A stretch of DNA of 63,699 bases, the filler included, from Candidatus Fermentibacterota bacterium (GTDB lineage Bacteria > JAFGKV01), in NCBI GenBank assembly GCA_016928395.1. It is 9 parts of 9 records of this genome, joined end to end, with 100 filler letters (N's around TTAATTAATTAA, not from the genome) between each part and the next. Parts side by side here need not be neighbours in the genome. Positions count along the whole stretch, not along the records: positions 7,008 to 35,520 come from JAFGKV010000254.1; 8 more parts are not named here. One strand, written 5' to 3'. The stretch's first letter is position 1. The number at the start of each line of letters is the position of its first letter. The notes below the pieces were generated by a model that had not been told where the DNA came from, did no database searches, and worked only from the letters and a program-made list of their open reading frames with translations. Shown here one piece after another: positions 3,756-63,009 of the stretch. The position numbers were made by a program, and so were the translations under genes.

Positions 3756-6390
3756 AGCTTCCCGCGGTCATGTGCGCGAAGTAGAGCCCGGAGGCAACAC
3801 CCCGTCCCTGCGCATCGGCGCCATCCCACACCACTGTGTGCACTCCTACGCTCTGCGGTCCTGAGGTGAGGGTCTTCAGGAGACGGCCGTCGAGGTCGTA
3901 GATCTCGACTCTGACCTCACCCATATCGGGCACCGCATAGCGCAGCGCCGTTCGTCCGGTTGTGGGATTCGGGCAGGGAGGCGACAGGGTGAACCGGGCT
4001 GGGAGGGCGGCGTCATCCCACTTCTCTTCTCCACTCACGGATGGCACAAACGGTGTTCCGGCAACCCATGTTCCGGCAATGAGCTCGCCGTTGTTTCCAT
4101 GGGGAGACCAGTCGTCAATGGCAGTGCCATTGCCCTCGTTCATCCGCCAGTAGCCGACCAAACCGAGCTCACTCCCTCCCAGATACACGCCCATCGCCGC
4201 GCTGATCTCGGTCGCGGAGCGGACGGTGTTCCACACCCTGACTTCGTCAATGGCGCCGTCGAAGGTGTAGTTCTGGGCACTCCCGTTCCCGATGAACAGC
4301 GCCTCGGTGGCGTTGTCACGGATGGGGCCGGAAGGCTGGCTGGAAAGGGTCAGCGGCTGCTCGAGGCCGTTGATGTACATGCGGACTGAGCCGGTGGCCC
4401 CGTCGTAGGTCGCCGCCACATGATGCCAGTTGCCCAGCACGATAGACGAGTCGGGCGTGCAGCAGACCCGCGGCGGACCGCTGGTGTTCCTCAGAAGCAG
4501 CACAAGGCTGTGAGAGGCATAGGCGTTGCCCGTGCCATTGAGGTAGAGCGCAGTTGCGCTCTTGTCAACGATGCGGCCTGCACCGGAGTTCTGCACTTCG
4601 CCCCAGCCTTCAGGGCATATCCATGCCTCGACGGTTGCGGCGTCGGTGAGAGCGAGGGACGGCGATGCGGCACATTCCACACCGCCACTGGAACCGTCGA
4701 AGCTCAACGCACTCTCCCCATCGAACACCGAGACAAAGGATTCCCGAACCACGGTCTCCGAGACGCTGCCATTATCGACCGTCAGCGAGACGTTGTATGA
4801 ACCTGGAAGAACGTATGTCCACGCCGGGTGCCGCTCTCGGGAATCAACGGTACCATCGTTGTCGAAGTCCCATGCCCAGGCGATTGCGGCGGGGATGGAC
4901 TCAGAGAGATCCGTGAACTGCACCGACAGCGGCGCATGTCCCGTAGAGGGCTCGGCATGCATGTCAGGAACGACATAGGGAGGATGCAAAGACTCGTTTC
5001 GGAAGACCTTGGTGTAGCTCCATTCGGTGATGGCGAGGTCAAGGTCAAGGGAGTAGACGTAGGTGACGGCGACCGTGTCACCCGGAGAGGCGGGCACGCC
5101 CAGGGAGACCCAGCCGCACAGAGGATCGTAGCAGAACTGCGCAGGCGTCAGTTCTGTCCCGTTCAGTTCGATCGCCAGAAGCTCATGCATGGGCGCATGC
5201 GAGACGTAGAACAGACGCCGCCCGTCCGCGACGAACGCCTCCCGAGTTGTGAACAGGGAATCCTCGTCGAAGTCTGCGAACGCGATCTGCTGGGCGCCTG
5301 TGCAGCTGTGTGACCAGGAGGGCTGCTCGGCCAGCATCCCTCCGATGTTCTCGAAGATGAAGGCAGGCCCGCTCCATGACCCGGTTGCCAGGTCGAGATC
5401 GCCATCCCCGTCCAGGTCCGCCCATGCAACCGCCGAAGCCTGTGCTTGGGTTCTGTATGACCACGTCGGAACCGAATCGAGGACACCCGCAGTGTTCTTG
5501 AACACGTGGAAGCCTCGGGGCACATCGGCGACCGCCAGGTCCAAGAAGCCGTCGCCATCCATATCGCCGAAATTCATCTGAAGGCCCCCGCTGACGGCGG
5601 CGGTCGTCCATGTGGGGGTTGTCTCCAGTACTCCTCCATGGTTCATGAATACCGCGATGCCCGTGGAGTCGCCCCACCCGATTGCAAGATCGAGGTCGCC
5701 ATCCCGATCCACATCACCGAACACAGCCGCGCAGCCGTAGTGAAGATCGGCGGTCTCCCACCCCGGCACGGTGTCGAACACTCCGCCGTTGTTGAGGAAC
5801 ATCTTCGACGTCTTCAAGCCCCCGTCGAGCCAGTGACCCTCAGGAAACACGAGGTCAAGGTCACCATCGCCGTCAGGATCACCGCCCGCACAGGCGAAGG
5901 CGTTGCCGGGAGGTGACAGCCAACCTGGTGACGGCTCCAGACCGCCCGCATTGTAGTAGACCACGTGTGGTTCGGGGGCCAGGTTCTGCGTTATCAATCC
6001 CAGTGTGGCGACTGCCACGTCGGGATCACCATCGTTATCGAGATCGCCAATGAACATGCAGTTGGAGGTTCGACTGTCGGTGGAAGTCCATCCGGGAGAG
6101 GTCGAGAGCTGGCCATCTTGGTTGAAGTAGACGAAGTTCGGGCTGTTCGTAACATCGAGACCATGGGTCACCGCCAGGTCCATCCAGCCGTTCGCATCGA
6201 AGTCTGCCCAGCCCAATCCCGTGGGGTAGCTCCCCGCCCTCTGCCAGATCGGCTGCGAGGACATCCGGATCGTGGCGCCAGCGGGAAGACATAGGATTGA
6301 CAGCGCGCCCAACGCGAAGGCGAGGACGACGGGACGACGTCGCGGGCCACCTCCGATCAAGGTGGCGGTGAGGTGACGTGATGCGTGCAT
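3721..6390 (-). CDS. Secreted FG-GAP-repeat + PKD + LamG-like protein with C-terminal FlgD-Ig/T9SS-type domain
   Basis: Multiple DxDGDGDLDLA FG-GAP repeats, a PKD motif (WAWDFDNDG), a LamG motif (WHHVAATYDG, FDGAIDEVRVW), and a PNP...YDLDGR...WDG...SGLYF tail. Start re-called at ATG 6390 after a GAGGAGG RBS. Confidence 0.85.
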   Translation of the reverse strand: MHASRHLTATLIGGGPRRRPVVLAFALGALSILCLPAGATIRMSSQPIWQRAGSYPTGLGWADFDANGWMDLAVTHGLDVTNSPNFVYFNQDGQLSTSPGWTSTDSRTSNCMFIGDLDNDGDPDVAVATLGLITQNLAPEPHVVYYNAGGLEPSPGWLSPPGNAFACAGGDPDGDGDLDLVFPEGHWLDGGLKTSKMFLNNGGVFDTVPGWETADLHYGCAAVFGDVDRDGDLDLAIGWGDSTGIAVFMNHGGVLETTPTWTTAAVSGGLQMNFGDMDGDGFLDLAVADVPRGFHVFKNTAGVLDSVPTWSYRTQAQASAVAWADLDGDGDLDLATGSWSGPAFIFENIGGMLAEQPSWSHSCTGAQQIAFADFDEDSLFTTREAFVADGRRLFYVSHAPMHELLAIELNGTELTPAQFCYDPLCGWVSLGVPASPGDTVAVTYVYSLDLDLAITEWSYTKVFRNESLHPPYVVPDMHAEPSTGHAPLSVQFTDLSESIPAAIAWAWDFDNDGTVDSRERHPAWTYVLPGSYNVSLTVDNGSVSETVVRESFVSVFDGESALSFDGSSGGVECAASPSLALTDAATVEAWICPEGWGEVQNSGAGRIVDKSATALYLNGTGNAYASHSLVLLLRNTSGPPRVCCTPDSSIVLGNWHHVAATYDGATGSVRMYINGLEQPLTLSSQPSGPIRDNATEALFIGNGSAQNYTFDGAIDEVRVWNTVRSATEISAAMGVYLGGSELGLVGYWRMNEGNGTAIDDWSPHGNNGELIAGTWVAGTPFVPSVSGEEKWDDAALPARFTLSPPCPNPTTGRTALRYAVPDMGEVRVEIYDLDGRLLKTLTSGPQSVGVHTVVWDGADAQGRGVASGLYFAHMTAGSFSTSRPCVVIR

Positions 6391-7372
6391 GGTTCTCCTC
6401 CTCATGAACTGAGGCGCAGTGCCGATTCCGCGGACCCAACCGTATGGCAGTCCACGCGGGTGCGGCGTGTCGTGGAGAAAGATCCGTGCCGGCCGTCTCA
6501 GAATCGTCTCACGGCGTACTCTGCCGCTGCCCGGAAGGTTCCCGTTCACGTGCGTTTCTCTGTCGCGATCATCCCTGGATCCGAGAAGGCGGGGCCGAAG
6601 GCCGCTTGACTCCCCGCGCCGGGGAAACGAGCTTGCGTGTGATTGGATGGTACGGCGCACTATACCGGTGATTCGGGCATGCGGGGTCGAACCGAACGCC
6701 GGCAGAGCTCTGGCCTCCAGCCACGAGAGGGGTGCGTATGGATCCTTCTTCCGAGCCGGTGTCTTCCCCGCCTCCTCGTTCGCTCCACCCTCCCAGCTCT
6801 CTAGGCAGAGCCGCCTCACCATACCATTGGTTCAGCCATGTGTTCTCATTCCATTGTACTCGGGTTCATCAGTACGAGGACTAGTGATGATCAGGAATGC
6901 CTACGGANNNNNNNNNNNNNNNNNNNNNNNNNNNNNNNNNNNNNNNNNNNNTTAATTAATTAANNNNNNNNNNNNNNNNNNNNNNNNNNNNNNNNNNNNN
7001 NNNNNNNGAACCTCCTTGGGAGCAACGATGCTCAGGTTCGGGGGTTCGGGGTCCAGAATTGTGCTCGCGAAAGCTCCCATTCGAAACCCCATAGGAGCAC
7101 GGGGCAACGGAGAAGGCCGAGGAGAGCCGATGGTGACAGCCTTCCGCACTTCAGAACAACCGTGGAATCCACGCAGCGAGTAGACCAGGGCCCGATCATC
7201 CCACGCCCACCCCGTACCCTTGACATGTCATCAGGTACCGCAGGCATCGGTTGTCCTTCTCCACGTGGTGGTGGCCAAGGAGTACTTGACCAGCCCCACT
7301 GGCAAGGCTTTCCTTGCGAGCCTCTGCCGCGTTGAAGCGGCTTCTATATACTCTGACGAGGTTTGACGTCTC

Positions 7373-15576: not shown

Positions 15577-18500
15577 TCACGGCTCAGGGGTTGCAGAGCC
15601 GGTGGCCGGCTCTGCGTAGTTGAACCTCCAGTCAAAGGCTAAGACCGCGTAGTAGTAGTTCTGGCCGTTCGTGAGATCGGTATCAACCACTGTCGTCAGA
15701 CTGGGGCCCAAGATCGCCACGATGGCGGATGTCCCGATGGCGGTTTCACCCGCGTAGTCCTCACCCTGGACGGGAAGATCAACCACCGGATCGGTCTCGC
15801 GACGGAGTACGATGGTTCCGATGCGATCCGGGTCCGCTGGGTTCTCCCACGACAGAGTATCGACACCGTCTCCGGCATCGATCGCAAGATGCAGAACCTG
15901 CCCTGGGGCAGTCACATCATACGTGGCGCTGTCGGTCTTGGCAGTCGAGTAGTTCGGCACCTCGTCCATGGCAAAGGCCGAATAGAAGTAGCGTTGCTCC
16001 ACCGGTGAGGCATGGAGAATGGAGTCGGGGGTGGATGGTGTCCCCGGCTCAATACCCAAGAGAGTTCCGGAGGTCGGCGTGGCGGGGTACGAGGCCGTTC
16101 CATACCGCACCATCACGCTCTGAAAGTCAGCCGTCGACGGGCTGTTCCAGGTCAGCCGGATGCCTTCCTGCACCTGCCGGGCCGTGAAGTCAGTCACCGG
16201 AGCCGGGGAGGTCGTGTCCGCGGGGGTGCCGGAGGCCTGGCGGCCCTCAGAGTAATTCCATGCCATGTCGTAGCTGTAGGCGCGGTAGTAGTACGTGGAA
16301 TCATTGACCACGCTGATGTCGGACCACTGAGTACCGGTGCCGATGTAGACCACCGTGCTTGCGCCGTCGGGAAGGAACTGCCCAACTTCATAGTCAACTC
16401 GGGGCACGGGGTTGGTGTTGACCGGTTGGCCCCTGCGCCTGCCGATGAGCACGCCTTCGTAGTCGCTGCTGGTGGGCGGTGTCCACGCCAGATGAAGCTT
16501 TCCATCATCGGATTGCACGGCGAACGTGATCACATCAGGCGGCGGCGTCAAATCCGCCCCGCTGGCCACACCGGGAGAATTGGAGAGCACTGACCAATTC
16601 CCGGCATCATCCCTGACCTTGAGGGCGATGTAATGCACTACATCGGGGGGGAGGCCGGTGATGAGAAGCGAGTCAGTAACGTCCGGCTCGGAAGGAACAG
16701 GTTCATCGGGCGCCTGTGTGGCAGCTTGGAATGCCGCCTCGGTGGTGATGGGAGAGCCTGTCCGATAGCGCAGGTCGTACTGCACGGCAGGGCCACCCCA
16801 CGTCGAGTCGTCACCCACCGCAACCCATCGCGCCTTGAGCGTTCCCTGGCTCGGCCCCGTCAATGCCTGCAGGGTAGTGACTTTCGCCGGCGGCGTGACA
16901 TCCACCTGCACCGTATCCGACGGGCTGTTGGACACTGCCGATTCGTTCGCATGATCGTCGAATGCCTTGCAGGCAAAGTACAGCACTGCGCCGGACGTGA
17001 GGTTCTTGGCGATGAGGGTGTCTTGGGCGAGCGGAGGTGAGAGCGACGGGCCCCGGAGGATTTGTGAGGATTGGAGTACAGTCGCGGTATTCCAGTTGAA
17101 CTCGGTGATGAGCTGGCCCGGCTGATAACGGAACTCATAGCCCGAGACCGTGCCGGTGAGCGAGTCGTCTCCCACGGCGGTCCACGTGAGCTGGATTTGG
17201 CCCTCAACCAGAGTCGGTGCATTCCCGGAGGCGATCAGGTCATCCACCCGCGCAGGACGGGTGACATCAACCTGGGGCATTGACTGCGGGCTATTGGACA
17301 CACCCGACATGATGCCCGCATCATCCTCGGCGCGAATGGCGAAGAAGTACCAGATTCCTGGAGTGAGCGAACTCACCACCAATGACTCGGGCTCATCGGC
17401 ACTGGCGGGAGGGAATGGCACCGGCACCGTGATGCAGGCCGGATTATCCCAGTCATTGGGGCCGATCTGCGCCCCTTGCCGGTACTTGAGATGATACGTC
17501 GATGCTGAGCCGGAGAGACTGTCATCACCGGTGGCGGTCCATGTCAGCAGCACCTGGCCCTCCACCAAGCCGGGCGCGGTGCCGGATGCCGATAGATCAT
17601 CGATTGGCGCCGGAGGCGTCACGTCGCTCTGCGCGAACTCGGTGGCCTGCGCGGACATGACGGAGGCATTGTCCACCTCGTCGAGTACCCGAAGCCTGAA
17701 GTAGTACTTCACGGTCGGCGTCAATCCTGCGGCCGCGAAGCTCTCCTCTTGCCCCGACGGTTTTGGCACCGGCGGGTTGGGCAGATCTATCGCGGCTTGG
17801 AACTGCTGCAGGGTAGTAATCGGTGACTGGGAAGCCCGGATCTCGTAGCGCGTGGCTGTTCCCACGTCGCCGTCATCGCCCGTGGCTGTCCACGTGAGTA
17901 GCACCTGGCCTTCGAGGGCGCCCTGCTGGGTGGCCGCAAGGTTCGCCACATAGCCCGGAGGCGTGACGTCGGCCTGGGCCGAGGTGGAGGCAGCATTCGA
18001 GAACGGGGACATGTTCTCTCTCGCGTCGGTGGAGCGAATGCAGAACCACACCTCACCGGTGGTGGGCAATCCCCGGGCGGTCATCTGTTGCGGCGTACCG
18101 GCCACAGACGGCGCCGGAACCCCTTGGGTAACGGCCGTGGCCGAGTTCCAGGCAGTCTCGGTGGCGATGGAGTCGGCGGCGAACTTGACGAAGTAGGCCG
18201 ATGCCGTGCCTTCATCACCGTTATCGCCCGGTGCGGTCCACGTCAAGATCGCCTCTCCCTCGAGCTGCCCGGGCACCGCCTGGAGGTCACGGATCGCGGC
18301 AGGCGCCATCTCGTCATCAGATGACACCGGGCCCGCCTCATTTGAAGGGGCCGATTCCATCGAACCCTCGAAGGCAGTCACTCGATAGAAGTACGGTGTC
18401 AGATCCACAACCCCAGTGTCCACGTACTCCGTCGTGCCGGGAGCGACCGACGTCAGGGGATTCCCATACACGCCGCTCTCGGTAGTACGGTAGAGGCGGT

Positions 18501-19629
18501 ACCCATCGATGCCGATTCCCCCGTTGTCACTAGGACTCTTCTGCCAGAGCAGTTGGATGCGGCCGCCACCGTCGGGTGAAGGGTTGAGTGCCTGCAGGTT
18601 ACCGGGAGGCTCGGGAGCACCGTTGTTTACGGCCATGGAGGAGTCCGCCGTGGAAAACGCGGAGAGACTCGTCGAATCCTTGGCTCGGACCCTGTAGTGG
18701 AAGATGCTGCCGGGCTGCAATCCTTCGTCGGCATAGTCCGCCGATCCGGCGCCTACCGTTCCCACACGGCTCATGGTGGTCGAATCCGGCCCAAAGCCTC
18801 GGTAGATCTCATACAGGGAAACGTCGTTCGCGCCGGTGCCATCGTCAGGGGAGAGCTCCCATGCCACCACGATGGCGGTCCCCGCATCATCGGGCCTGTC
18901 AGTCGCCGTCAGGGCGGTGGCAGGCCTCGGCGGGATATTATCCACCGGGTTGGCGCTATGGGGGCCTGCTGGGTGCGAGAGCAGAGTATCAGCCAGGGCA
19001 CTGACGCGGTAGTAGTAGAGCTTGCCTGGCGTGAGGCCGCAGTCAGTCACTGTGCCGATTCGGGCGGCTACCGTGGCAACGGGAGGGTACGAGCCTTCGA
19101 GCACGGTATCCCGCGCCACCACATAGCCGGTGATCTCGCTCCCCACCGTGTCCATGGGTGACAACTGCCACTCGACAATAAGGCAGGTGCCCTGGTCGTT
19201 CGGCTCGTCTCTCACAACAACGCCATAGGGTGCGTCGACGCCCCGAGGATAGGCGGGCACGATGCCGGAGCGTCTGCTGGTCTCTCCGCGGGCGTAGGAG
19301 GCCACCTGATACTCATACCGCACATCCGGGGATACATTCCGATCGGTGTACACGGACTCCGGGCACGCAACGCGGGCAATCATCAGAAACGATGTGGTGT
19401 CCGTTCCACTATCCATCCGGAACACGACGGTGGAATCGAGCCCCGGAACTGCAGGGACATCCCATGCCAGCCGTACTCCGCCTAACTGTCCTTCGGCTCT
19501 GAGGTCGAACGGATCATCGTTCGCGGGATCGAGAGGGTTCTTGTGATCTCTGGTGCACGATGGGCTCAGGGCGATGGCAACCAAGAGGGCGCCGAGCGCT
19601 CCTGCGCCCAACCCCATACGTATCGACAT
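15577..19629 (-). CDS. Large multi-fibronectin type III lipoprotein
   Basis: Signal peptide with lipobox-like LSPSC followed by NPLDP, then more than ten FN3-like units. Start re-called at ATG 19629 after AAGGAG. Confidence 0.8.
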   Translation of the reverse strand: MSIRMGLGAGALGALLVAIALSPSCTRDHKNPLDPANDDPFDLRAEGQLGGVRLAWDVPAVPGLDSTVVFRMDSGTDTTSFLMIARVACPESVYTDRNVSPDVRYEYQVASYARGETSRRSGIVPAYPRGVDAPYGVVVRDEPNDQGTCLIVEWQLSPMDTVGSEITGYVVARDTVLEGSYPPVATVAARIGTVTDCGLTPGKLYYYRVSALADTLLSHPAGPHSANPVDNIPPRPATALTATDRPDDAGTAIVVAWELSPDDGTGANDVSLYEIYRGFGPDSTTMSRVGTVGAGSADYADEGLQPGSIFHYRVRAKDSTSLSAFSTADSSMAVNNGAPEPPGNLQALNPSPDGGGRIQLLWQKSPSDNGGIGIDGYRLYRTTESGVYGNPLTSVAPGTTEYVDTGVVDLTPYFYRVTAFEGSMESAPSNEAGPVSSDDEMAPAAIRDLQAVPGQLEGEAILTWTAPGDNGDEGTASAYFVKFAADSIATETAWNSATAVTQGVPAPSVAGTPQQMTARGLPTTGEVWFCIRSTDARENMSPFSNAASTSAQADVTPPGYVANLAATQQGALEGQVLLTWTATGDDGDVGTATRYEIRASQSPITTLQQFQAAIDLPNPPVPKPSGQEESFAAAGLTPTVKYYFRLRVLDEVDNASVMSAQATEFAQSDVTPPAPIDDLSASGTAPGLVEGQVLLTWTATGDDSLSGSASTYHLKYRQGAQIGPNDWDNPACITVPVPFPPASADEPESLVVSSLTPGIWYFFAIRAEDDAGIMSGVSNSPQSMPQVDVTRPARVDDLIASGNAPTLVEGQIQLTWTAVGDDSLTGTVSGYEFRYQPGQLITEFNWNTATVLQSSQILRGPSLSPPLAQDTLIAKNLTSGAVLYFACKAFDDHANESAVSNSPSDTVQVDVTPPAKVTTLQALTGPSQGTLKARWVAVGDDSTWGGPAVQYDLRYRTGSPITTEAAFQAATQAPDEPVPSEPDVTDSLLITGLPPDVVHYIALKVRDDAGNWSVLSNSPGVASGADLTPPPDVITFAVQSDDGKLHLAWTPPTSSDYEGVLIGRRRGQPVNTNPVPRVDYEVGQFLPDGASTVVYIGTGTQWSDISVVNDSTYYYRAYSYDMAWNYSEGRQASGTPADTTSPAPVTDFTARQVQEGIRLTWNSPSTADFQSVMVRYGTASYPATPTSGTLLGIEPGTPSTPDSILHASPVEQRYFYSAFAMDEVPNYSTAKTDSATYDVTAPGQVLHLAIDAGDGVDTLSWENPADPDRIGTIVLRRETDPVVDLPVQGEDYAGETAIGTSAIVAILGPSLTTVVDTDLTNGQNYYYAVLAFDWRFNYAEPATGSATPEP

Positions 19630-19658
19630 CACTGCTCCTTTGGTAACAACACGGTATG

Positions 19659-20588
19659 TCAGAATCTGCGCGACACCATCATCCCCACTCCCCGGGGACA
19701 GACGGCCAGGACGGGAGACCAGGTCTTCGCCGAGGACGGCCCCGCGGACCACTGCTCGGATGAACCAAAGTCATGATTGAACCAGTAGTGTATGGTCAGC
19801 GCTAGGCCTCCCGCGGCAAGGACCGCCACGGCGTTGCGGGCCAGGAGATAATCACTGGACTTGTTGTAGAGACGGGTGATTTCGTATTGGCCGATGGCAC
19901 GGAGATACTCATCCCACGTGTCGGAGGCGCGCGAGTCGTAGTGATAGGTCAGGTAGCCCAGGGCGATGGTTGCACCGATGGCCGCCCATGGTCGCACATG
20001 GAGAAGTGGCGAAGAGCCTTTCCCCGTTCTGGCGACTGTAGGAGCCCGCTGCGGCGCAGACCCTACCGGTGTAATACCTGCTATCTGTCCCTGCACGACG
20101 CGGGCCGTCTCCATGCCCGCCTGGTCGGAGGTGATGTCGAAATTGGTCTCGATCTGTTCTATTGTGTGCACCGTCTTTGCCACGCAGTTGACGATGTATG
20201 TCTTAATGTTGACGATGTCCCCAGTACGGGTGAACGAGCCGAAGACCACTTTTTCTGCATTCACGCTCTCGCCCAACCGGAACGCCTGGCGCTCATTCGT
20301 CAGATACCCGAGCTCCGGAGCCAGCGTGTCCAGTACCGCGGATACTTCTTCCTGAGACACGATGAGGATCCGCCCTGTGGAGATGAGACGGGATGCAATT
20401 GCCTGCCGTATGATGCGCTGGAACGCATCCAGCGAGTCAATCTCGGTTCTGTTGCGGAAGTCAAGGACCGCAACTCTCGGCAGCTCATGTTGTTCCGGAG
20501 CGAGAAGCTCATCCTGTGCCAGGGATTGGGCGACGCCCGCGGTGACGAGCGCCGTCACGATCCAGAGAGTCAATCTCACCTTGCTCAC
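19659..20588 (-). CDS. Secreted CsgG/FlgO/TolB-N-like protein with C-terminal hydrophobic hairpin
   Basis: RVAVLDFRN...LGESVNAEKVVFGSF N-terminal domain and two C-terminal hydrophobic segments. Start re-called at GTG 20588. Confidence 0.6.
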   Translation of the reverse strand: MSKVRLTLWIVTALVTAGVAQSLAQDELLAPEQHELPRVAVLDFRNRTEIDSLDAFQRIIRQAIASRLISTGRILIVSQEEVSAVLDTLAPELGYLTNERQAFRLGESVNAEKVVFGSFTRTGDIVNIKTYIVNCVAKTVHTIEQIETNFDITSDQAGMETARVVQGQIAGITPVGSAPQRAPTVARTGKGSSPLLHVRPWAAIGATIALGYLTYHYDSRASDTWDEYLRAIGQYEITRLYNKSSDYLLARNAVAVLAAGGLALTIHYWFNHDFGSSEQWSAGPSSAKTWSPVLAVCPRGVGMMVSRRF

Positions 20589-29307: not shown

Positions 29308-29493
29308 ATGAAGCGCACTGAACTCGAGAGACGCCTGAGACATCTCGGGTGGAGGTTTCTTCGTCACGGTGGCAAGCATGACGTGTGGGCGAAAGGCGAT
29401 CGGGAGGTCATTGTGCCTCGACACAATGAGATCAACGAGTACACTGCCAAGGCCATTCTTAAGGAAGCCGGGGCAGACACGGAGGTTGGGTGA
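29308..29493 (+). CDS. hicA: HicA family toxin
   Basis: 61 aa with RHGGKHDVW...VPRHNEINEYTAKAIL. Confidence 0.9.
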   Translation: MKRTELERRLRHLGWRFLRHGGKHDVWAKGDREVIVPRHNEINEYTAKAILKEAGADTEVG

Positions 29494-29544
29494 GCGAATG
29501 CGTAACCCAACAAGGCTTCCGAGCCAGGATCGAGGAGTGGACGG

Positions 29545-32735: not shown

Positions 32736-32875
32736 AGAGTGAAGAGTGAAGAGTGAGGAGAGTGCTGCCTCGTCGGAGTCTTTGGAGCTCGGCGTGGACG
32801 CCGCAGAGCGGCGTCCACGTAGGTTGGGTTAGCGAATGCGTAACCCAACATTGACCTGTGGAAAGTGACGTGACG

Positions 32876-33178
32876 ATGACCGAACAGGACAAGCAGGCGG
32901 TCAAACGGATGCTGGCGCAGTGTTTGAGTCGTGATCGCGAGGTCACCAAGGTCGTGGTGTTCGGGTCATTCCTGACCAGCGAGACGCCACATGACATCGA
33001 CGTGGCGGTCTTCCAGGACAGCGGGGAGGGCTACCTCCCTCTCGCCCTGAGGTATCGCAAGAGGACACGCGCCGTCTCTCGGATCATTCCTCTCGATATC
33101 ATACCCGTCGGCTCGCGTGCCGGGAGCGGGCCATTCCTTGCGGAAATAGCCAAGGGAGAGGTGATCTATGAGCGGTGA
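32876..33178 (+). CDS. Minimal nucleotidyltransferase (MNT) antitoxin-like protein
   Basis: VFGS...DIDV...LDI motif; overlaps the HEPN gene. Confidence 0.85.
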   Translation: MTEQDKQAVKRMLAQCLSRDREVTKVVVFGSFLTSETPHDIDVAVFQDSGEGYLPLALRYRKRTRAVSRIIPLDIIPVGSRAGSGPFLAEIAKGEVIYER

Positions 33179-33545
33179 GTCTCTTCGCTGGCTGAGCTAC
33201 GCCGCGGAGAACCTACGATCCGCCGAGGTCTTGCTGGAGAGTGGATTGTACAACCCGAGTCTGCAGAATGCGCAACAGGCCGTCGAGAAATGCCTCAAGT
33301 CCCTCCTCATTCGGCACTCGCTGGAGTTCAAACGGACGCATAGCATTGCGGGCCTCAGAGCGCTCCTTGCCGAAGCCGGTGTGGTGGTTGACCTGAGCGA
33401 TGACGAATGTGATCTGCTCGATTCGATCTATCTTCCGTCGAGATACCCTCTCGGCAGTGCTCTGCCGGATTTCGAACCCGATGAGGAGCTGTGTCACCGG
33501 TGCAGCGAGATCGCCGAACGAGTGCTGAATGCCGCTGGGTTATGA
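33168..33545 (+). CDS. HEPN domain protein
   Basis: W...A...L...AQQAVEKCLK...THSI...YLPSRYP. Confidence 0.88.
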   Translation: MSGESLRWLSYAAENLRSAEVLLESGLYNPSLQNAQQAVEKCLKSLLIRHSLEFKRTHSIAGLRALLAEAGVVVDLSDDECDLLDSIYLPSRYPLGSALPDFEPDEELCHRCSEIAERVLNAAGL

Positions 33546-33679: not shown

Positions 33680-34807
33680 ATGCGAACATTGTTGATCGTG
33701 GCGGGTCTGGCGACGATTGGGTTCTTGTTGGTCCCACGTTGCGCCAAGGAGCCGACGGCGTTGCCAGCGCAGGAGTGGATTGACCTACTGTCGCCGACGC
33801 AGGGAACTACCTGGACGGTCGGCGACACCGCCAGCGTCACCTGGACCTCCCGCGGAACCTCGGGCCAGGTGAAGATCGAGCTGAGCCGAGGCGGGTCATC
33901 GTGGACAACTCTTGGGACCGTTTCTGCCAGTGCAAACGCATACGACTGGGTCGTGACCGGGCCTGAGGCAACCGGGTGTCGGGTGCGGGTGAGTGATTCC
34001 GCCGACGGGAGCCCAAGCGTCCAGAGCGGCGCCCTTGCCATCAGCGAGTTCCACTCCCTTCTCGACATGGTCTCCCTCTCAGGCGGGACGTTCCAGATGG
34101 GGTCGACGTCGTCGTGGGCGTACTCCTGGGAGCAGCCGGTGCACCAAGTGACCGTATCGGCCTTCTCCATTGCCAAGGATGAAGTGACGCAGGCCCAGTA
34201 TCAGGAGGTGATGGGGACGAATCCGTCGTATTTCCAGGGGGCGAACCGGCCGGTGGAGCAGGTGACATGGTGGGATGCGGCGAAGTTCTGCAATGCGTTG
34301 AGCGCGAGGGAGGGGTTGACGAAGTTCTACAACGATGATGATTTGAACAGTCAGGCGAGCACGGTGCGGATGACGTGGAGTGCGAACGGGTATCGGTTGC
34401 CGACCGAAGCGGAGTGGGAGTATGCGTGTCGTGCGGGGAGCACGACAGACTTCTACAACGGGAACCTGACGAATCCGTACTGTGAGCCATTGGATCCGAA
34501 CCTGGATCTTATCGGGTGGTACTGCGGGAACTCGAACGACCAGACCCACGACGTGGGCGGCAAGCAGCCGAACACGTTTGGGTTGTACGACATGAGCGGG
34601 AACGTATGGGAGTGGTGCAATGACTGGTATGGGGACTATTCCTCGGGGTCGCAGACCGATCCGACTGGGCCGAGCAGCGGGTCGACCCGGGTGCGACGCG
34701 GCGGCAGCTGGTACAGCTACGCGCAGAGCTGCCGCTCCGCGTACCGCTACGACTACTCGCCCGGCTACAGCTACTACGACATCGGCTTCCGTCTCGTTCG
34801 CCGTTAG
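33680..34807 (+). CDS. DGR target: lipoprotein with Ig-like domain and FGE-sulfatase-type C-type-lectin domain
   Basis: Signal peptide ending in Cys (LLVPRC), an Ig-like Ser/Thr-rich domain, and FGE-fold motifs FQMGS, EVTQAQY, RLPTEAEWEYACRAG, GLYDMSGNVWEWC, RGGSW and GFRL. HRDC and avd-like genes follow. Confidence 0.9.
   Translation: MRTLLIVAGLATIGFLLVPRCAKEPTALPAQEWIDLLSPTQGTTWTVGDTASVTWTSRGTSGQVKIELSRGGSSWTTLGTVSASANAYDWVVTGPEATGCRVRVSDSADGSPSVQSGALAISEFHSLLDMVSLSGGTFQMGSTSSWAYSWEQPVHQVTVSAFSIAKDEVTQAQYQEVMGTNPSYFQGANRPVEQVTWWDAAKFCNALSAREGLTKFYNDDDLNSQASTVRMTWSANGYRLPTEAEWEYACRAGSTTDFYNGNLTNPYCEPLDPNLDLIGWYCGNSNDQTHDVGGKQPNTFGLYDMSGNVWEWCNDWYGDYSSGSQTDPTGPSSGSTRVRRGGSWYSYAQSCRSAYRYDYSPGYSYYDIGFRLVRR
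34688..34807 (+). other. DGR variable region (VR), with IMH-like 3' end
   Basis: 13 codons (8 TAC, 3 AGC, 2 GAC) lie between the invariant GGSW, CRSA.R and IGFR scaffold. Each is one A-substitution away from AAC. Confidence 0.8.
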
Positions 34808-34847: not shown

Positions 34848-34935
34848 CGCGGGGCCACAGCCGACGCGGCAGCGAAGCGGAGCCGCGGGCTGTGGCCCCG
34901 CGGGAGACGCCGGAGCGCCCTTGGGCGTTCCGGCG
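34848..34935. repeat. Two GC-rich inverted repeats downstream of the VR (candidate DGR homing hairpin/cruciform)
   Basis: Perfect 15-bp stem at 34848-34862/34888-34902 enclosing cgcggc..gc-GAA-gc..gccgcg. Second stem at 34908-34920/34923-34935 with one mismatch. Confidence 0.8.
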
Positions 34936-34944
34936 CAGCCGAAA

Positions 34945-35442
34945 ATGGCGGATCTTCCCGATAGCGGTCTCGATCACCGTTTGAGGATCTTCACGGTGGC
35001 GTTCGACGCGGAGACGAAGACATTCCGCGATGAGGAGCTACGGCTGTTCCTGGCCGGCAGGCGGCTCCTGCGCTCGGAAGCCGCGTTCTTCCAGGTGGAC
35101 GGCGTTCCCTTTTGGTCGGTGCTCTTGGAGTATCGGGAGGGGCCGCACGAAGGAGAACCCAAGGAGGAACCGCTGGCCGGGCCGGCGGGAGCGCTCATGG
35201 AGCGGCTTCGCGAATGGCGCAAGGAGGAGGCCGCGCGGCGAGGGCTTCCCGTGTACGTGATCGCCACGAACAGCGAGCTTCGGCAGGTGGCTGCCCGCAT
35301 GCCGCACTCGTTCGAGGGGCTGCGTTCCATCAAGGGTTTCGGGAAGCGCAAGATAGAGGAGTACGGCGCCGCGATTCTGGAGGAGGTCAAATCGTTCGTA
35401 GGGGAGCGCGCGCGCGCCGAAGGAGGCAGCCCTGATGCGTGA
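34945..35442 (+). CDS. HRDC-domain protein (DGR accessory)
   Basis: LMERLREWRKEEAARRGLPVYVIATNSEL...IKGFGKRKIEEYGAAIL HRDC domain, preceded by an N-terminal domain (FTVAFD...FWSVLLEY). Confidence 0.88.
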   Translation: MADLPDSGLDHRLRIFTVAFDAETKTFRDEELRLFLAGRRLLRSEAAFFQVDGVPFWSVLLEYREGPHEGEPKEEPLAGPAGALMERLREWRKEEAARRGLPVYVIATNSELRQVAARMPHSFEGLRSIKGFGKRKIEEYGAAILEEVKSFVGERARAEGGSPDA

Positions 35443-35520
35443 AGACTATCCGGTGTTCGTGCACTGGTATCGCTTGCTGGATTGGATCCTCGACACCGTG
35501 GAGCGCTTCCCCAAGAGCGC
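35435..35520 (+). CDS. avd: Avd (accessory variability determinant)-like four-helix-bundle protein, 5' fragment
   Basis: Manual translation after an AGGAGG RBS: MREDYPVFVHWYRLLDWILDTVERFPKS. The L.W...(K/R)FPK N-terminal pattern is typical of Avd. Cut by the contig end. Confidence 0.78.
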
Positions 35521-36142
35521 NNNNNNNNNNNNNNNNNNNNNNNNNNNNNNNNNNNNNNNNNNNNTTAATTAATTAANNNNNNNNNNNNNNNNNNNNNNNN
35601 NNNNNNNNNNNNNNNNNNNNCGCCCGTCGCGAGGCTCGTACCATGCTGTCTGCAGCATATGCGGCGAGGAGAAGAACTTCCCCGAACAGGAACCCCGGTA
35701 CAGATTCGCTACGCAGAGGAAGCCGGTTCCACCGCCGATCGCGGACACCACACCGCTGGGTGGTTGAAGGCGCACGTAAGGAAACCTGGGGACAGCCCAG
35801 ACCCCACTCCCCATCAGGCGGACACTGTTCTGTCTTTCCCTCGAAGGCGGGGAGAGGGAATCCAGGACGTGACTTGTCTGTATCTGCTCTCTCTTCAACC
35901 CCTTGGAATCCCCCATTTCGCCTGAGACAAATCTTCGATGCTCCTGAGGCGTCCGCCTTTGGCGGATTGGGGGTAGAATAGTAAACGCAGAGGGGCTTCG
36001 ACCCTCTTCTCCTGAGGCGCATCTTCGATGCACGCCCCAATAGATGGAGCTTGCGCAGCAGAGCGCCGGGTAGCCGACCCGACGGCCAGAAGAGAAACGG
36101 CAATTGTGGCGCACTTCTTCGCTTGGTATGATGGGGCCGACA

Positions 36143-40827: not shown

Positions 40828-40927
40828 NNNNNNNNNNNNNNNNNNNNNNNNNNNNNNNNNNNNNNNNNNNNTTAATTAATTAANNNNNNNNNNNNNNNNN
40901 NNNNNNNNNNNNNNNNNNNNNNNNNNN

Positions 40928-43554: not shown

Positions 43555-43654
43555 NNNNNNNNNNNNNNNNNNNNNNNNNNNNNNNNNNNNNNNNNNNNTT
43601 AATTAATTAANNNNNNNNNNNNNNNNNNNNNNNNNNNNNNNNNNNNNNNNNNNN

Positions 43655-53193: not shown

Positions 53194-53404
53194 CCACCCT
53201 CACCTCTATCCTCTCCCATCGAGGGAGAGGTTTCCCCTGTGCATCCCCTTTTCCACCTGGATTCCCGCTTCCGCGGGAATGACAAGGAGNNNNNNNNNNN
53301 NNNNNNNNNNNNNNNNNNNNNNNNNNNNNNNNNTTAATTAATTAANNNNNNNNNNNNNNNNNNNNNNNNNNNNNNNNNNNNNNNNNNNNATGGTGGAATC
53401 ATGG

Positions 53405-57618: not shown

Positions 57619-57718
57619 NNNNNNNNNNNNNNNNNNNNNNNNNNNNNNNNNNNNNNNNNNNNTTAATTAATTAANNNNNNNNNNNNNNNNNNNNNNNNNN
57701 NNNNNNNNNNNNNNNNNN

Positions 57719-60723: not shown

Positions 60724-60823
60724 NNNNNNNNNNNNNNNNNNNNNNNNNNNNNNNNNNNNNNNNNNNNTTAATTAATTAANNNNNNNNNNNNNNNNNNNNN
60801 NNNNNNNNNNNNNNNNNNNNNNN

Positions 60824-61216: not shown

Positions 61217-62650
61217 TCAATCCTGAATCTCCATCCGTGGCTGCGGTGCTGCATCCTCGAGAGCTCGCGATGATCCCCCTGCCACTTCCCCCAACGCTGC
61301 GGCCAGGTCCCGTTCTTCCTCGGGGAACACGGTTCGCACGTCGACGATCAGGCGGTCGTTGGTGATGCGCACGAACACGGAAGGCGAACCCTGCCGGAGG
61401 CGCCGGGCCGCCTCGGTCGCACCCAGGGGGCCGGGATCGACCTCGATCAGTGTGGTGGGCAGGTCCAGGACCGGGAATGCTCCGCTTCCGGCCCTGGAGG
61501 CCCCGGGTGAGACTCTGGTCTCGAGGTGATACCGGCGACGGAGTCTGAGGGCCAACCGCTTCGCCCGGGGCTGCAGGTCACTATTCTGGGCGGTGATCAT
61601 TCGCAAGGCCGGTATTCGGGATACTGCCTCCTGCGGGTCGAGCATCAGCCGTAGGGTGGCCTCCAAGGAGGCCAGCACCAGCTTGTCAACCCTGAGGGCC
61701 CGGGCCAAGGGATGGGACCGTATCCGCTCGATCAGGGCGCGGGAGCCGATGATGAGGCCGGCCTGCGGACCGCCCACCAGTTTGTCGCCGCTGAAGGTGA
61801 CCACATGGGCGCCCTGCTGGATTGAGAGCCCAGCCGGAGGTTCGCCCCCCAGTCCGTGGGCCGCAAAGTCGATGAGTGATCCGGAACCCATGTCGTGGAC
61901 GAGGATCAAGTCTCTGGTTGACGCCAGGGGCGAGAGTTCCTCCAGCGACACCGAACTGGTAAAACCCTGGATAGCATAGTTGGAGGTGTGCACCTTCATG
62001 ATGGCGACGGTCTGCTCAGTGATGGCAGCCTCGTAGTCGCGCAGATGGGTTCGATTGGTGCAGCCGACCTCCACCAGAACCGCGCCGCTTTGGGCCATGA
62101 CCTCGGGGATGCGGTATGAACCGCCGATTTCGACAAGCTCGCCCCGCGAGACGATGACCTCCCTGCCCTTGGCAATAGCAGCCAGGGTTACCAAAGTCGC
62201 CCCGGCATTGTTGTTCACGATGGTGGCGGCCTCACAGCCGGTCAGGTGACAGAGCAGGGATTCGGTGTGGGCCTCGCGCAGACTGCGCATGCCCTCGTCC
62301 AGATCAGCCTGCACATTGCAGAACCGGGCCGCAGCCACCAAGGCGGCTATTGCCTCGTCGGCCAGCGGCGCCCGCCCGAGCCCCGTGTGGAGCACGACTC
62401 CCGTGGCGTTGATGACCCGACGCAGGCCGGGGGCTAATGCTGCCGTCACATCCCCCGCGATCTGGGCCAGAGTCTCGGCCTTGCCCATCCGCTGCATCGC
62501 GCCTGCCATGATGCCGGCACGATGGGCCTCGATGACCTCCCTGGCGCGGAGGACAATCAACGCCCGAGATTCCGATGCCCGCAGGAGAACGGCTTCGACT
62601 ACGTCGTTCACCGAGGGAAGACTGGTGAGGGTATTCTTCATCTCGTGCAC
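61217..62650 (-). CDS. selA: L-seryl-tRNA(Sec) selenium transferase
   Basis: VINATGVVLHTGLGRA, VNNNAGA, SRGELVEIGGSYR, KVHTSNY and FSGDKLVGGPQAG. GTG start after AGGAGG. Confidence 0.96.
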   Translation of the reverse strand: MHEMKNTLTSLPSVNDVVEAVLLRASESRALIVLRAREVIEAHRAGIMAGAMQRMGKAETLAQIAGDVTAALAPGLRRVINATGVVLHTGLGRAPLADEAIAALVAAARFCNVQADLDEGMRSLREAHTESLLCHLTGCEAATIVNNNAGATLVTLAAIAKGREVIVSRGELVEIGGSYRIPEVMAQSGAVLVEVGCTNRTHLRDYEAAITEQTVAIMKVHTSNYAIQGFTSSVSLEELSPLASTRDLILVHDMGSGSLIDFAAHGLGGEPPAGLSIQQGAHVVTFSGDKLVGGPQAGLIIGSRALIERIRSHPLARALRVDKLVLASLEATLRLMLDPQEAVSRIPALRMITAQNSDLQPRAKRLALRLRRRYHLETRVSPGASRAGSGAFPVLDLPTTLIEVDPGPLGATEAARRLRQGSPSVFVRITNDRLIVDVRTVFPEEERDLAAALGEVAGGSSRALEDAAPQPRMEIQD

Positions 62651-63009
62651 GGCACCTCCTTCATGCGAGATCACACAAGTAGCATGTCGAGCGAGGAAGG
62701 TCAAAGGAGAGGACCCGACCGAGGTGTCGTCGACAGGTCACGGTTGGGGATTCACAGTCATCTGCTTTCGCGAACGGTGGGGTGTGACCGGCCTATGACA
62801 TGAGGCAAGACTCATCAGTCGCCGGGAATGCTCCCAGCGGAGTATCTGAACCAAGGCTCAATTCGACAACCGGTTGCGCGGTCTCAGCCATGGGTGCGAG
62901 ACTCCTTCTCCATTCCAGTGGATACGGATGGATCCGAAGACGGAAACGTGGTTTATATTGTATGAAGACGCGGCCAAGAGGCCGACATCTGCGAGAAGAG
63001 AGGTGTGGA

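Follow-up and report, generated by a model that had tools for sequence, protein, structure and literature searches.

A probable variable region of a diversity-generating retroelement at a contig end in Candidatus Fermentibacterota bacterium JAFGKV01

The diversity-generating retroelement (DGR) of Bordetella phage BPP-1, with Mtd, Avd, a template repeat (TR) and Brt, is described as rewriting AAY codons in an adenine-specific manner within a variable region (VR) in a C-terminal C-type lectin (CLec) fold, with Avd as an accessory protein and inverted repeats past the VR (PMC3240598, PMC6328139). AAY is reported to recur more often in TRs than any other codon and cannot give rise to a stop codon by mutation, and TvpA, Mtd and TaqVP all belong to one subtype of the fold, that of formylglycine-generating enzyme (FGE) (PMC6328139). 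DGRs with an HRDC gene (architecture C) are a minority class typified by Treponema (PMC5758913, PMC4891356); in a 2017 survey such genes were present in 14 of 372 DGRs (4 %), about half of them with avd (PMC5758913). Here, a stretch of 63,699 bases from Candidatus Fermentibacterota bacterium JAFGKV01 (the window) was analysed, which consists of nine contigs with identical N44-TTAATTAATTAA-N44 linkers between them; adjoining contigs need not be neighbours in the genome. The 3′ end of one FGE-family gene in the window is very probably a genuine DGR variable region, its template and enzyme having been lost at a contig break. As DGRs are themselves well known, the finding is a confirmation and not a surprise. 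The gene and its variable part are placed as follows.

33680–34807, plus strand: proposed target gene of a DGR, for a variable protein of 375 aa; open reading frame (ORF) with matches to Pfam PF03781 and TvpA.
34685–34807, plus strand: proposed VR; from the limits of TR/VR homology in related loci and the shift in codon style.
34712–34780, plus strand: proposed VR core with 13 TAC/AGC/GAC codons; from codon reading, AAY counts in related TRs and variability among homologs.

The target protein comprises a hydrophobic, signal-like N-terminus with a cysteine at residue 21, a weak Ig-like segment and an FGE-sulfatase/C-type-lectin-fold domain. It looks like a secreted or lipid-anchored protein, a prediction from its sequence and from homologs with a Cys after the hydrophobic segment. 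Pfam assigns FGE-sulfatase (PF03781) to residues 129–374 of 375 (E 9.8e-57); a Kre9_KNH match (E 2.5e-4) falls below the family cutoff. The best PDB match is TvpA (2y3c), the DGR variable protein of Treponema denticola (phmmer E 2.1e-42), and the variable stretch aligns with the C-terminal RGGSW...SPG...GFRL segment of TvpA. True formylglycine-generating enzymes match the target far more weakly than does TvpA (E 1e-20 or weaker). The C-terminal segment, GGSWYSYAQSCRSAYR, holds a single Cys. Catalytic FGE/SUMF1 has a pair of active-site cysteines in its C-terminal segment, the position of the second being known from human FGE. Because of the TvpA match, the protein is filed here as a TvpA-like binding protein and not as an enzyme. 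The location of the VR, at the 3′ end of a gene for a CLec/FGE-fold domain (PF03781 and TvpA matches), is that of a DGR variable region.

An earlier note on this DNA had drawn attention to 13 codons that are solely TAC, AGC or GAC, set between fixed flanking codons. The sequence reads exactly so. The 23-codon core is flanked by GGC GGC AGC TGG (34700–34711) on the 5′ side and ATC GGC TTC CGT (34781–34792) on the 3′ side, and the 13 codons begin at 34712, 34715, 34718, 34727, 34742, 34748, 34751, 34754, 34766, 34769, 34772, 34775 and 34778. They comprise eight TAC, three AGC and two GAC, every one an NNC codon and, as the note had also claimed, one substitution from AAC; the translated peptide of the variable stretch is GGSWYSYAQSCRSAYRYDYSPGYSYYDIGFR. 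TAC, AGC and GAC account for 13/23 codons of the core (34712–34780) against 31/352 elsewhere in the gene (Fisher one-sided p 6.8e-8), a density of 13 per 23 codons that no other part of the 63.7-kb window reaches in any of its six frames. The shift in codon style towards C-ending codons is equally plain: third-position C rises from 32 % in the 336 upstream codons to 72 % (28/39 codons, 34688–34804; p 1.4e-6), while third-position G falls from 49 % to 18 %. Outside the 13 sites, 15/26 codons of 34688–34804 also end in C. The codon pattern of the variable stretch is real and far beyond chance. Eight or more (8–9) such codons per 23 occur at one other spot, at about 16200–16300 on the minus strand, inside the ORF 15580–19752; this is probably plain Tyr/Ser/Asp-rich repeat sequence of a 1391-aa fibronectin-III repeat protein.

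Comparison with the three closest homologs, P0015, P0025 and P0029, reveals where the protein varies. Over residues 130–340 they are identical to the target at 166/204, 153/201 and 144/211 positions, respectively (68–81 %); by BLASTP, P0015 and P0025 are 77 % and 71 % identical to it. At 18 scaffold positions interleaved with the variable sites, they match the target at 16, 16 and 14, and at the 13 variable sites at 3, 3 and 0. Hypervariability among these homologs is restricted to the 13 sites, and all 39 residues that they carry there (39/39) can be encoded by NNC.

Two scans, one of genome contigs with a four-protein alignment and one of metagenomes with P0029, returned at least 159 loci with at least 190 complete FGE-type C-termini. 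The best match among those listed was 54 % identical in the genome-contig scan and 50 % identical in the metagenome scan, in which P0029's own contig was not returned. Among the 159 loci listed, 11 possess a TR, for a total of 14 VRs, and 250/273 of the mismatches between TR and VR fall at TR adenines; these are bona fide TR/VR pairs. Their scaffold aligns column for column with the VR of the window. In these relatives, either the GS-N-RV codons or RV-x-RGGSW mark the start of TR/VR homology, which stops 10–30 nt past GFR. The 5′ limit of the window VR is uncertain (34679–34700), and its 3′ end lies at about the stop codon, with a presumed initiation of mutagenic homology (IMH)-like stretch. 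Two of the related loci, L063 (VRs ending at 818 and 5297) and L096 (VRs ending at 7055, 8690 and 10645), have two and three FGE targets, respectively, for a single TR; on the sequences compared, multi-target cassettes are common among related loci.

AAY stands at the 13 codon positions, in order, in 11, 11, 7, 11, 10, 11, 5, 9, 11, 0, 10, 9 and 11 of the 11 TRs: in at least nine TRs at 10 of the positions, and in at least one at 12. The TR that the earlier note had predicted, rich in AAC, is thus borne out by analogy at 12/13 positions, strongly so at 10, and fails at AGC 34769. There the 11 TRs have AGY (two), AGG (four), ACG (one), CGC (three) or TCG (one) and never AAY, so that this codon is probably templated as AGC and the prediction of AAC is probably wrong. 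The position of GAC 34751, AAC in 5/11 TRs, is equivocal. The interleaved scaffold codons for W, C-R-S-A, R, P and G-F-R are AAY in 0/11 related TRs. Three codons that the note had taken to be fixed may be mutable, judging from their counterparts in the TRs: ACC 34685 (AAY in 6/7), GGC 34763 (GAY in 7/11) and AGC 34706 (AGY in 5/11). The stretch has, then, what AAY-derived NNY codons without stops would leave, with 13/13 NNC, 12/13 at positions where relatives have AAY, and only NNC-encodable residues in the homologs.

If each of the 13 codons derives from AAC, the changes are eight A-to-T at position 1 (Tyr), three A-to-G at position 2 (Ser) and two A-to-G at position 1 (Asp), with none to C. 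In the relatives, 246 changes comprise 120 to G, 94 to T and 32 to C, and the spectrum inferred for the window VR (T 8, G 5, C 0) is alike. Tyr is the commonest outcome at the TR-Asn codons of the relatives (38/168), and the VR of locus L006 is likewise Tyr-rich, with eight Tyr at 14 Asn codons. Enrichment in Tyr is therefore typical of related loci and, in the present VR, no special sign of selection; the suggestion in the earlier note that a Tyr-rich binding surface had been selected draws no particular signal from the data. In L006 and L063, which both bear an HRDC gene, single changes occur at 30/40 Asn codons; were the two adenines to mutate independently, no more than half of the codons could show a single change. 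This excess could reflect either a distinct mutation spectrum of the HRDC class, with a lower per-adenine rate favouring T and G, or strong selection for a Tyr surface. It is conceivable, if rather doubtful, that an active DGR with HRDC and Avd in an Eisenbacteria-like sediment bacterium has converged here on a minimalist Tyr/Ser/Asp paratope, with exactly one adenine change per recognisable Asn codon and no Asn remaining.

The region directly downstream of the target gene contains two hairpins and two accessory genes, the second cut short by the end of the contig.

34848–34902, no strand assigned: long GC-rich inverted repeat, outer stem 15 bp, inner stem 6 bp, apex GCGAAGC; from DNA folds.
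34908–34935, no strand assigned: second hairpin, 12-bp stem and 4-nt CTTG loop; from the DNA fold.
34945–35442, plus strand: HRDC-domain accessory gene, 165 aa; Pfam PF00570, E 5.9e-22, residues 83–148.
35435–35520, plus strand: Avd-like (bAvd) accessory gene, provisionally assigned, first 28 codons, cut by the contig end; from hhalign and tblastn.
35521–35620, no strand: artificial linker N44-TTAATTAATTAA-N44 at the contig end; from the sequence.

Both genes, of two kinds found as accessories of DGRs, lie on the same strand as the target and directly 3′ of it, and the ATG of the Avd-like gene (35435) overlaps the stop codon of the HRDC gene (TGA, 35440–35442). The start of the HRDC gene is uncertain: it may be ATG 34945 or TTG 34834 (the longest ORF), and the protein database lists a 173-aa form. 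A profile was built from bAvd proteins of related DGR loci, four in number and each confirmed by Pfam. The 28-aa fragment aligns to the N-terminal part of this profile (columns 10–34; hhalign probability 85 %, E 6.2e-6), and tblastn matches it to locus L128 (E 3e-4) and to the bAvd ORF of locus L065 (E 0.003). A search of Pfam with the fragment gave no bAvd match; the Delta_lysin match that it did give (E 0.009) was judged spurious. The contig (7008–35520, 28.5 kb, the longest of the nine) ends 713 nt after the VR and 85 bases into the Avd-like gene.

Among the 159 loci listed, HRDC homologs occur only in L006, L029, L063 and L065 (tblastn E 2e-8 to 7e-15). All four carry a TR, and in each the HRDC gene comes directly after the target, followed by the reverse transcriptase (RT) gene and then the TR. 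In L065, the order is target, HRDC, bAvd, RT, TR. The N-terminal part of the HRDC protein of the window, about 80 aa (34945–35190), has no Pfam match and is conserved in L006 and L065 (tblastn alignments from residues 12–14); L014 has a weak match to this part alone, just past its FGE gene (E 0.004). It may represent an undescribed domain specific to the HRDC proteins of DGRs.

The locus resembles that of T. denticola in its target, which, like TvpA, folds as a C-type lectin of the FGE subtype, bears the VR at its extreme C-terminus and looks like a lipoprotein or secreted protein; as in the DGRs of Treponema and others of architecture C, an HRDC accessory gene adjoins the target. It differs from T. 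denticola in that an Avd-like gene comes after the HRDC gene and in that the host is a sediment bacterium. As far as described in PMC4891356, the accessory gene of T. denticola sits between the TR and the RT gene, whereas the present contig ends before any RT or TR; L006, L029, L063 and L065 also depart from T. denticola, with HRDC between target and RT and the TR last. L065, from a contig labelled as a Blastocatellia metagenome-assembled genome, has the same gene order as far as the window reaches, an equal length of scaffold from W to GFR, an HRDC protein 28 % identical to that of the window (E 7e-15) and a bAvd N-terminus resembling the 28-aa fragment. Its target domain, however, is only about 44 % identical, and in place of a Tyr-rich VR it has one rich in Gly and Ser, in which 7/12 Asn codons are changed at both adenines. 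As far as it is visible, the locus probably belongs with the DGRs of architecture C (Wu et al., 2017), those with HRDC, and among these with the ones that have avd as well.

The hairpins begin about 41 nt past the stop codon of the target gene. The region folds with a z score of −5.7, and 0/200 shuffled sequences fold as well (DNA folding). Hairpins of phage DGRs are described as having stems of 7–10 bp and GRNA loops, and as lying 4–34 bp from the VR (PMC3240598). Relative to the inverted repeats of BPP-1, those of the window are longer (15 + 6 bp and 12 bp), lie farther along and have no 4-nt GRNA loop, the CTTG loop of the second hairpin being unlike the reported consensus. The principle would be that of BPP-1; the locus differs from it also in its chromosomal context and in the extra HRDC gene. 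The inverted repeat at 34848–34902 is a candidate target-site hairpin or cruciform of a DGR, or else a terminator; both hairpins could be terminators, since stem size, loops and distance are off the phage consensus. The apex GCGAAGC (34870–34880) is also found in a GC hairpin after the target stop codon of L065 (about 4725–4735), and L006 has ACGAAGC in a similar hairpin; it may be a conserved target-site element of DGRs with HRDC and Avd.

The established DGR model, as outlined in PMC3240598 and PMC6328139, can be applied to the locus by inference. The cassette would continue beyond 35520 with the rest of avd, then RT and TR, by analogy with L065, on whose model RT and TR would start about 0.3 kb and 1.3 kb past the contig end. 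Reverse transcription of the TR transcript would place wrong bases opposite adenines, and the resulting cDNA would overwrite the VR from its 3′ end, so that AAC (Asn) codons of the TR turn into NNC codons of the VR. Mutagenesis of this kind would explain why all 13 codons end in C despite the preference of the gene for G. The C-terminal FGE-type C-type-lectin fold would then display some 12–15 variable residues.

Several results weigh against this interpretation. A blastn search with 7-nt words revealed no second copy of the VR in the window, matches reaching no farther than 16 nt (94 % identity) or 26 nt (81 %); a repeat search of the window likewise found no VR copy, and an IUPAC NNC pattern with up to three mismatches matched the VR alone in the window. 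RVT_1 was found in 0/58 ORFs of at least 70 aa on the nine contigs, and a pattern that keeps the scaffold exact and has N at each variable position gave 0 matches in viral, genome and metagenome contig collections. AAC is kept at 0/13 sites, whereas Asn persists at 28/168 in the relatives, and the finding of one change at every site is partly a selection effect, because the sites were picked as one step from AAC. The Avd-like call concerns 28 residues of a truncated gene, the HRDC protein is 25–29 % identical to the HRDC genes of related loci, and a database of 5.8 billion proteins held no near homolog of it besides itself. Both the activity of a DGR and the presence of an RT at this locus are thus presumptive. 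That TR and RT are unseen in the window follows from the position of the contig end, 85 bases into the Avd-like gene and before the place that RT and TR occupy in the relatives.

The main rival, which we consider unlikely, is that the stretch is a relic or orphan VR, written in the past by a DGR that has since become inactive or incomplete (with RT or TR missing or damaged), the pattern being frozen in its last state. It would agree with the invisibility of both RT and TR in the window, with the lack of any retained AAC, and with the fact that within-sample variation is not demonstrable from the metagenome data (contigs only, noisy at 80 % likeness). However, the contig end fully accounts for the unseen RT and TR, and intact frames in canonical order are present for target, HRDC gene and what is visible of the Avd-like gene, with the overlapping stop and start expected of a maintained operon. 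The VR might instead be a remote target, served in trans from another place in the genome that has the TR/RT cassette, and not by a continuation past 35520. Multi-target and remote-target DGRs among the relatives (two VRs in L063 and three in L096 per single TR) would speak for this; we consider it very improbable, as HRDC and avd lie directly downstream here, a position that in all four HRDC-bearing relatives marks the core cassette with RT next. It is harder still to credit that the gene encodes an ordinary FGE-family protein, unrelated to DGRs, in which a Tyr/Ser/Asp-rich C-terminal loop has arisen by chance along with a local codon quirk. FGE C-termini without a TR within reach are certainly frequent (176/190, among the 159 loci listed), yet the codon pattern would be expected by chance with p 7e-8, 13/13 C-ending codons stand in a gene with 32 % C-ending codons, the sites coincide with the TR Asn positions of relatives and are the sole hypervariable ones among close homologs, and two DGR accessory genes follow the target.

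With regard to the sample of origin, sequencing run X1 (a sediment metagenome, as Logan contigs) carries 79 % of the sampled words of the stretch and may be the source sample. At 80 % likeness, X1 and a second run, X2, gave 455 and 55 records, mostly less than 95 % alike and many from unrelated FGE genes. Among the differences listed, four fall at predicted sites and go towards AAC (34686 C>A, 34716 G>A, 34754 T>A and 34772 T>A); the contigs that carry them are of uncertain origin, and they are not counted as evidence. Contigs of the two runs reach only 42 nt beyond 35520. At the junction of HRDC and avd (35325–35463), X1 has two 139-nt contigs, at depths of 8.2 and 8.5, with 0 and 14 differences from the window. 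X1 contains another strain or a paralog that diverges by about 10 %, and this second haplotype may explain the assembly break at 35520.

Upstream of the target, the contig has ordinary cellular genes (uvrB, miaA, glycosyltransferases and one for a PEGA-domain protein) together with a nucleotidyltransferase/HEPN pair; the context is chromosomal. Its UvrB is 80 % identical to a UvrB labelled Candidatus Eisenbacteria, on which basis an Eisenbacteria-like placement was preferred to the Fermentibacteria suggested by the name of P0015. Among ten genomes of related loci, no near relative was found by UvrB, identity being at most 61 % and one genome giving no match. The pair directly upstream of the target (32858–33545, plus strand) consists of a Polbeta nucleotidyltransferase (PF18765) and a HEPN protein (PF05168, E 2e-26) with overlapping ends, and looks like an MNT/HEPN toxin–antitoxin-type module; the cassette of locus L040 also includes a nucleotidyltransferase (AbiEii-like) gene. 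A 35-nt repeat, 94 % identical between its copies at 29478–29512 and 32816–32850, has its own inverted repeat, GGTTGGGT...ACCCAACA, and may be a repetitive extragenic palindrome (REP)-like or terminator element. On other contigs, tandem 8-nt units (TGGAACGA and variants) lie just inside two contig starts (53386–53468 and 60900–60950), and a gene at 61220–62704 (minus strand) encodes SelA, L-seryl-tRNA selenium transferase (E 1e-137), so that the organism probably uses selenocysteine. Features crossing the linkers, at 2687–2786, 6908–7007, 35521–35620, 40828–40927, 43555–43654, 53290–53389, 57619–57718 and 60724–60823, are artefacts.

A single VR copy suffices, through its codon pattern and scaffold, to spot a DGR variable region and to predict most of its template. 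Such recognition helps where a metagenome bin is so fragmented that TR and RT lie on other contigs. If the cassette at this locus is complete, the organism would possess a surface binding protein variable at some 12–13 Asn-templated sites, with 15^12 to 15^13 possible sequences (NNC encodes 15 residues), and the locus would add one more member, from a poorly studied candidate phylum, to the rare class of DGRs with both HRDC and Avd.

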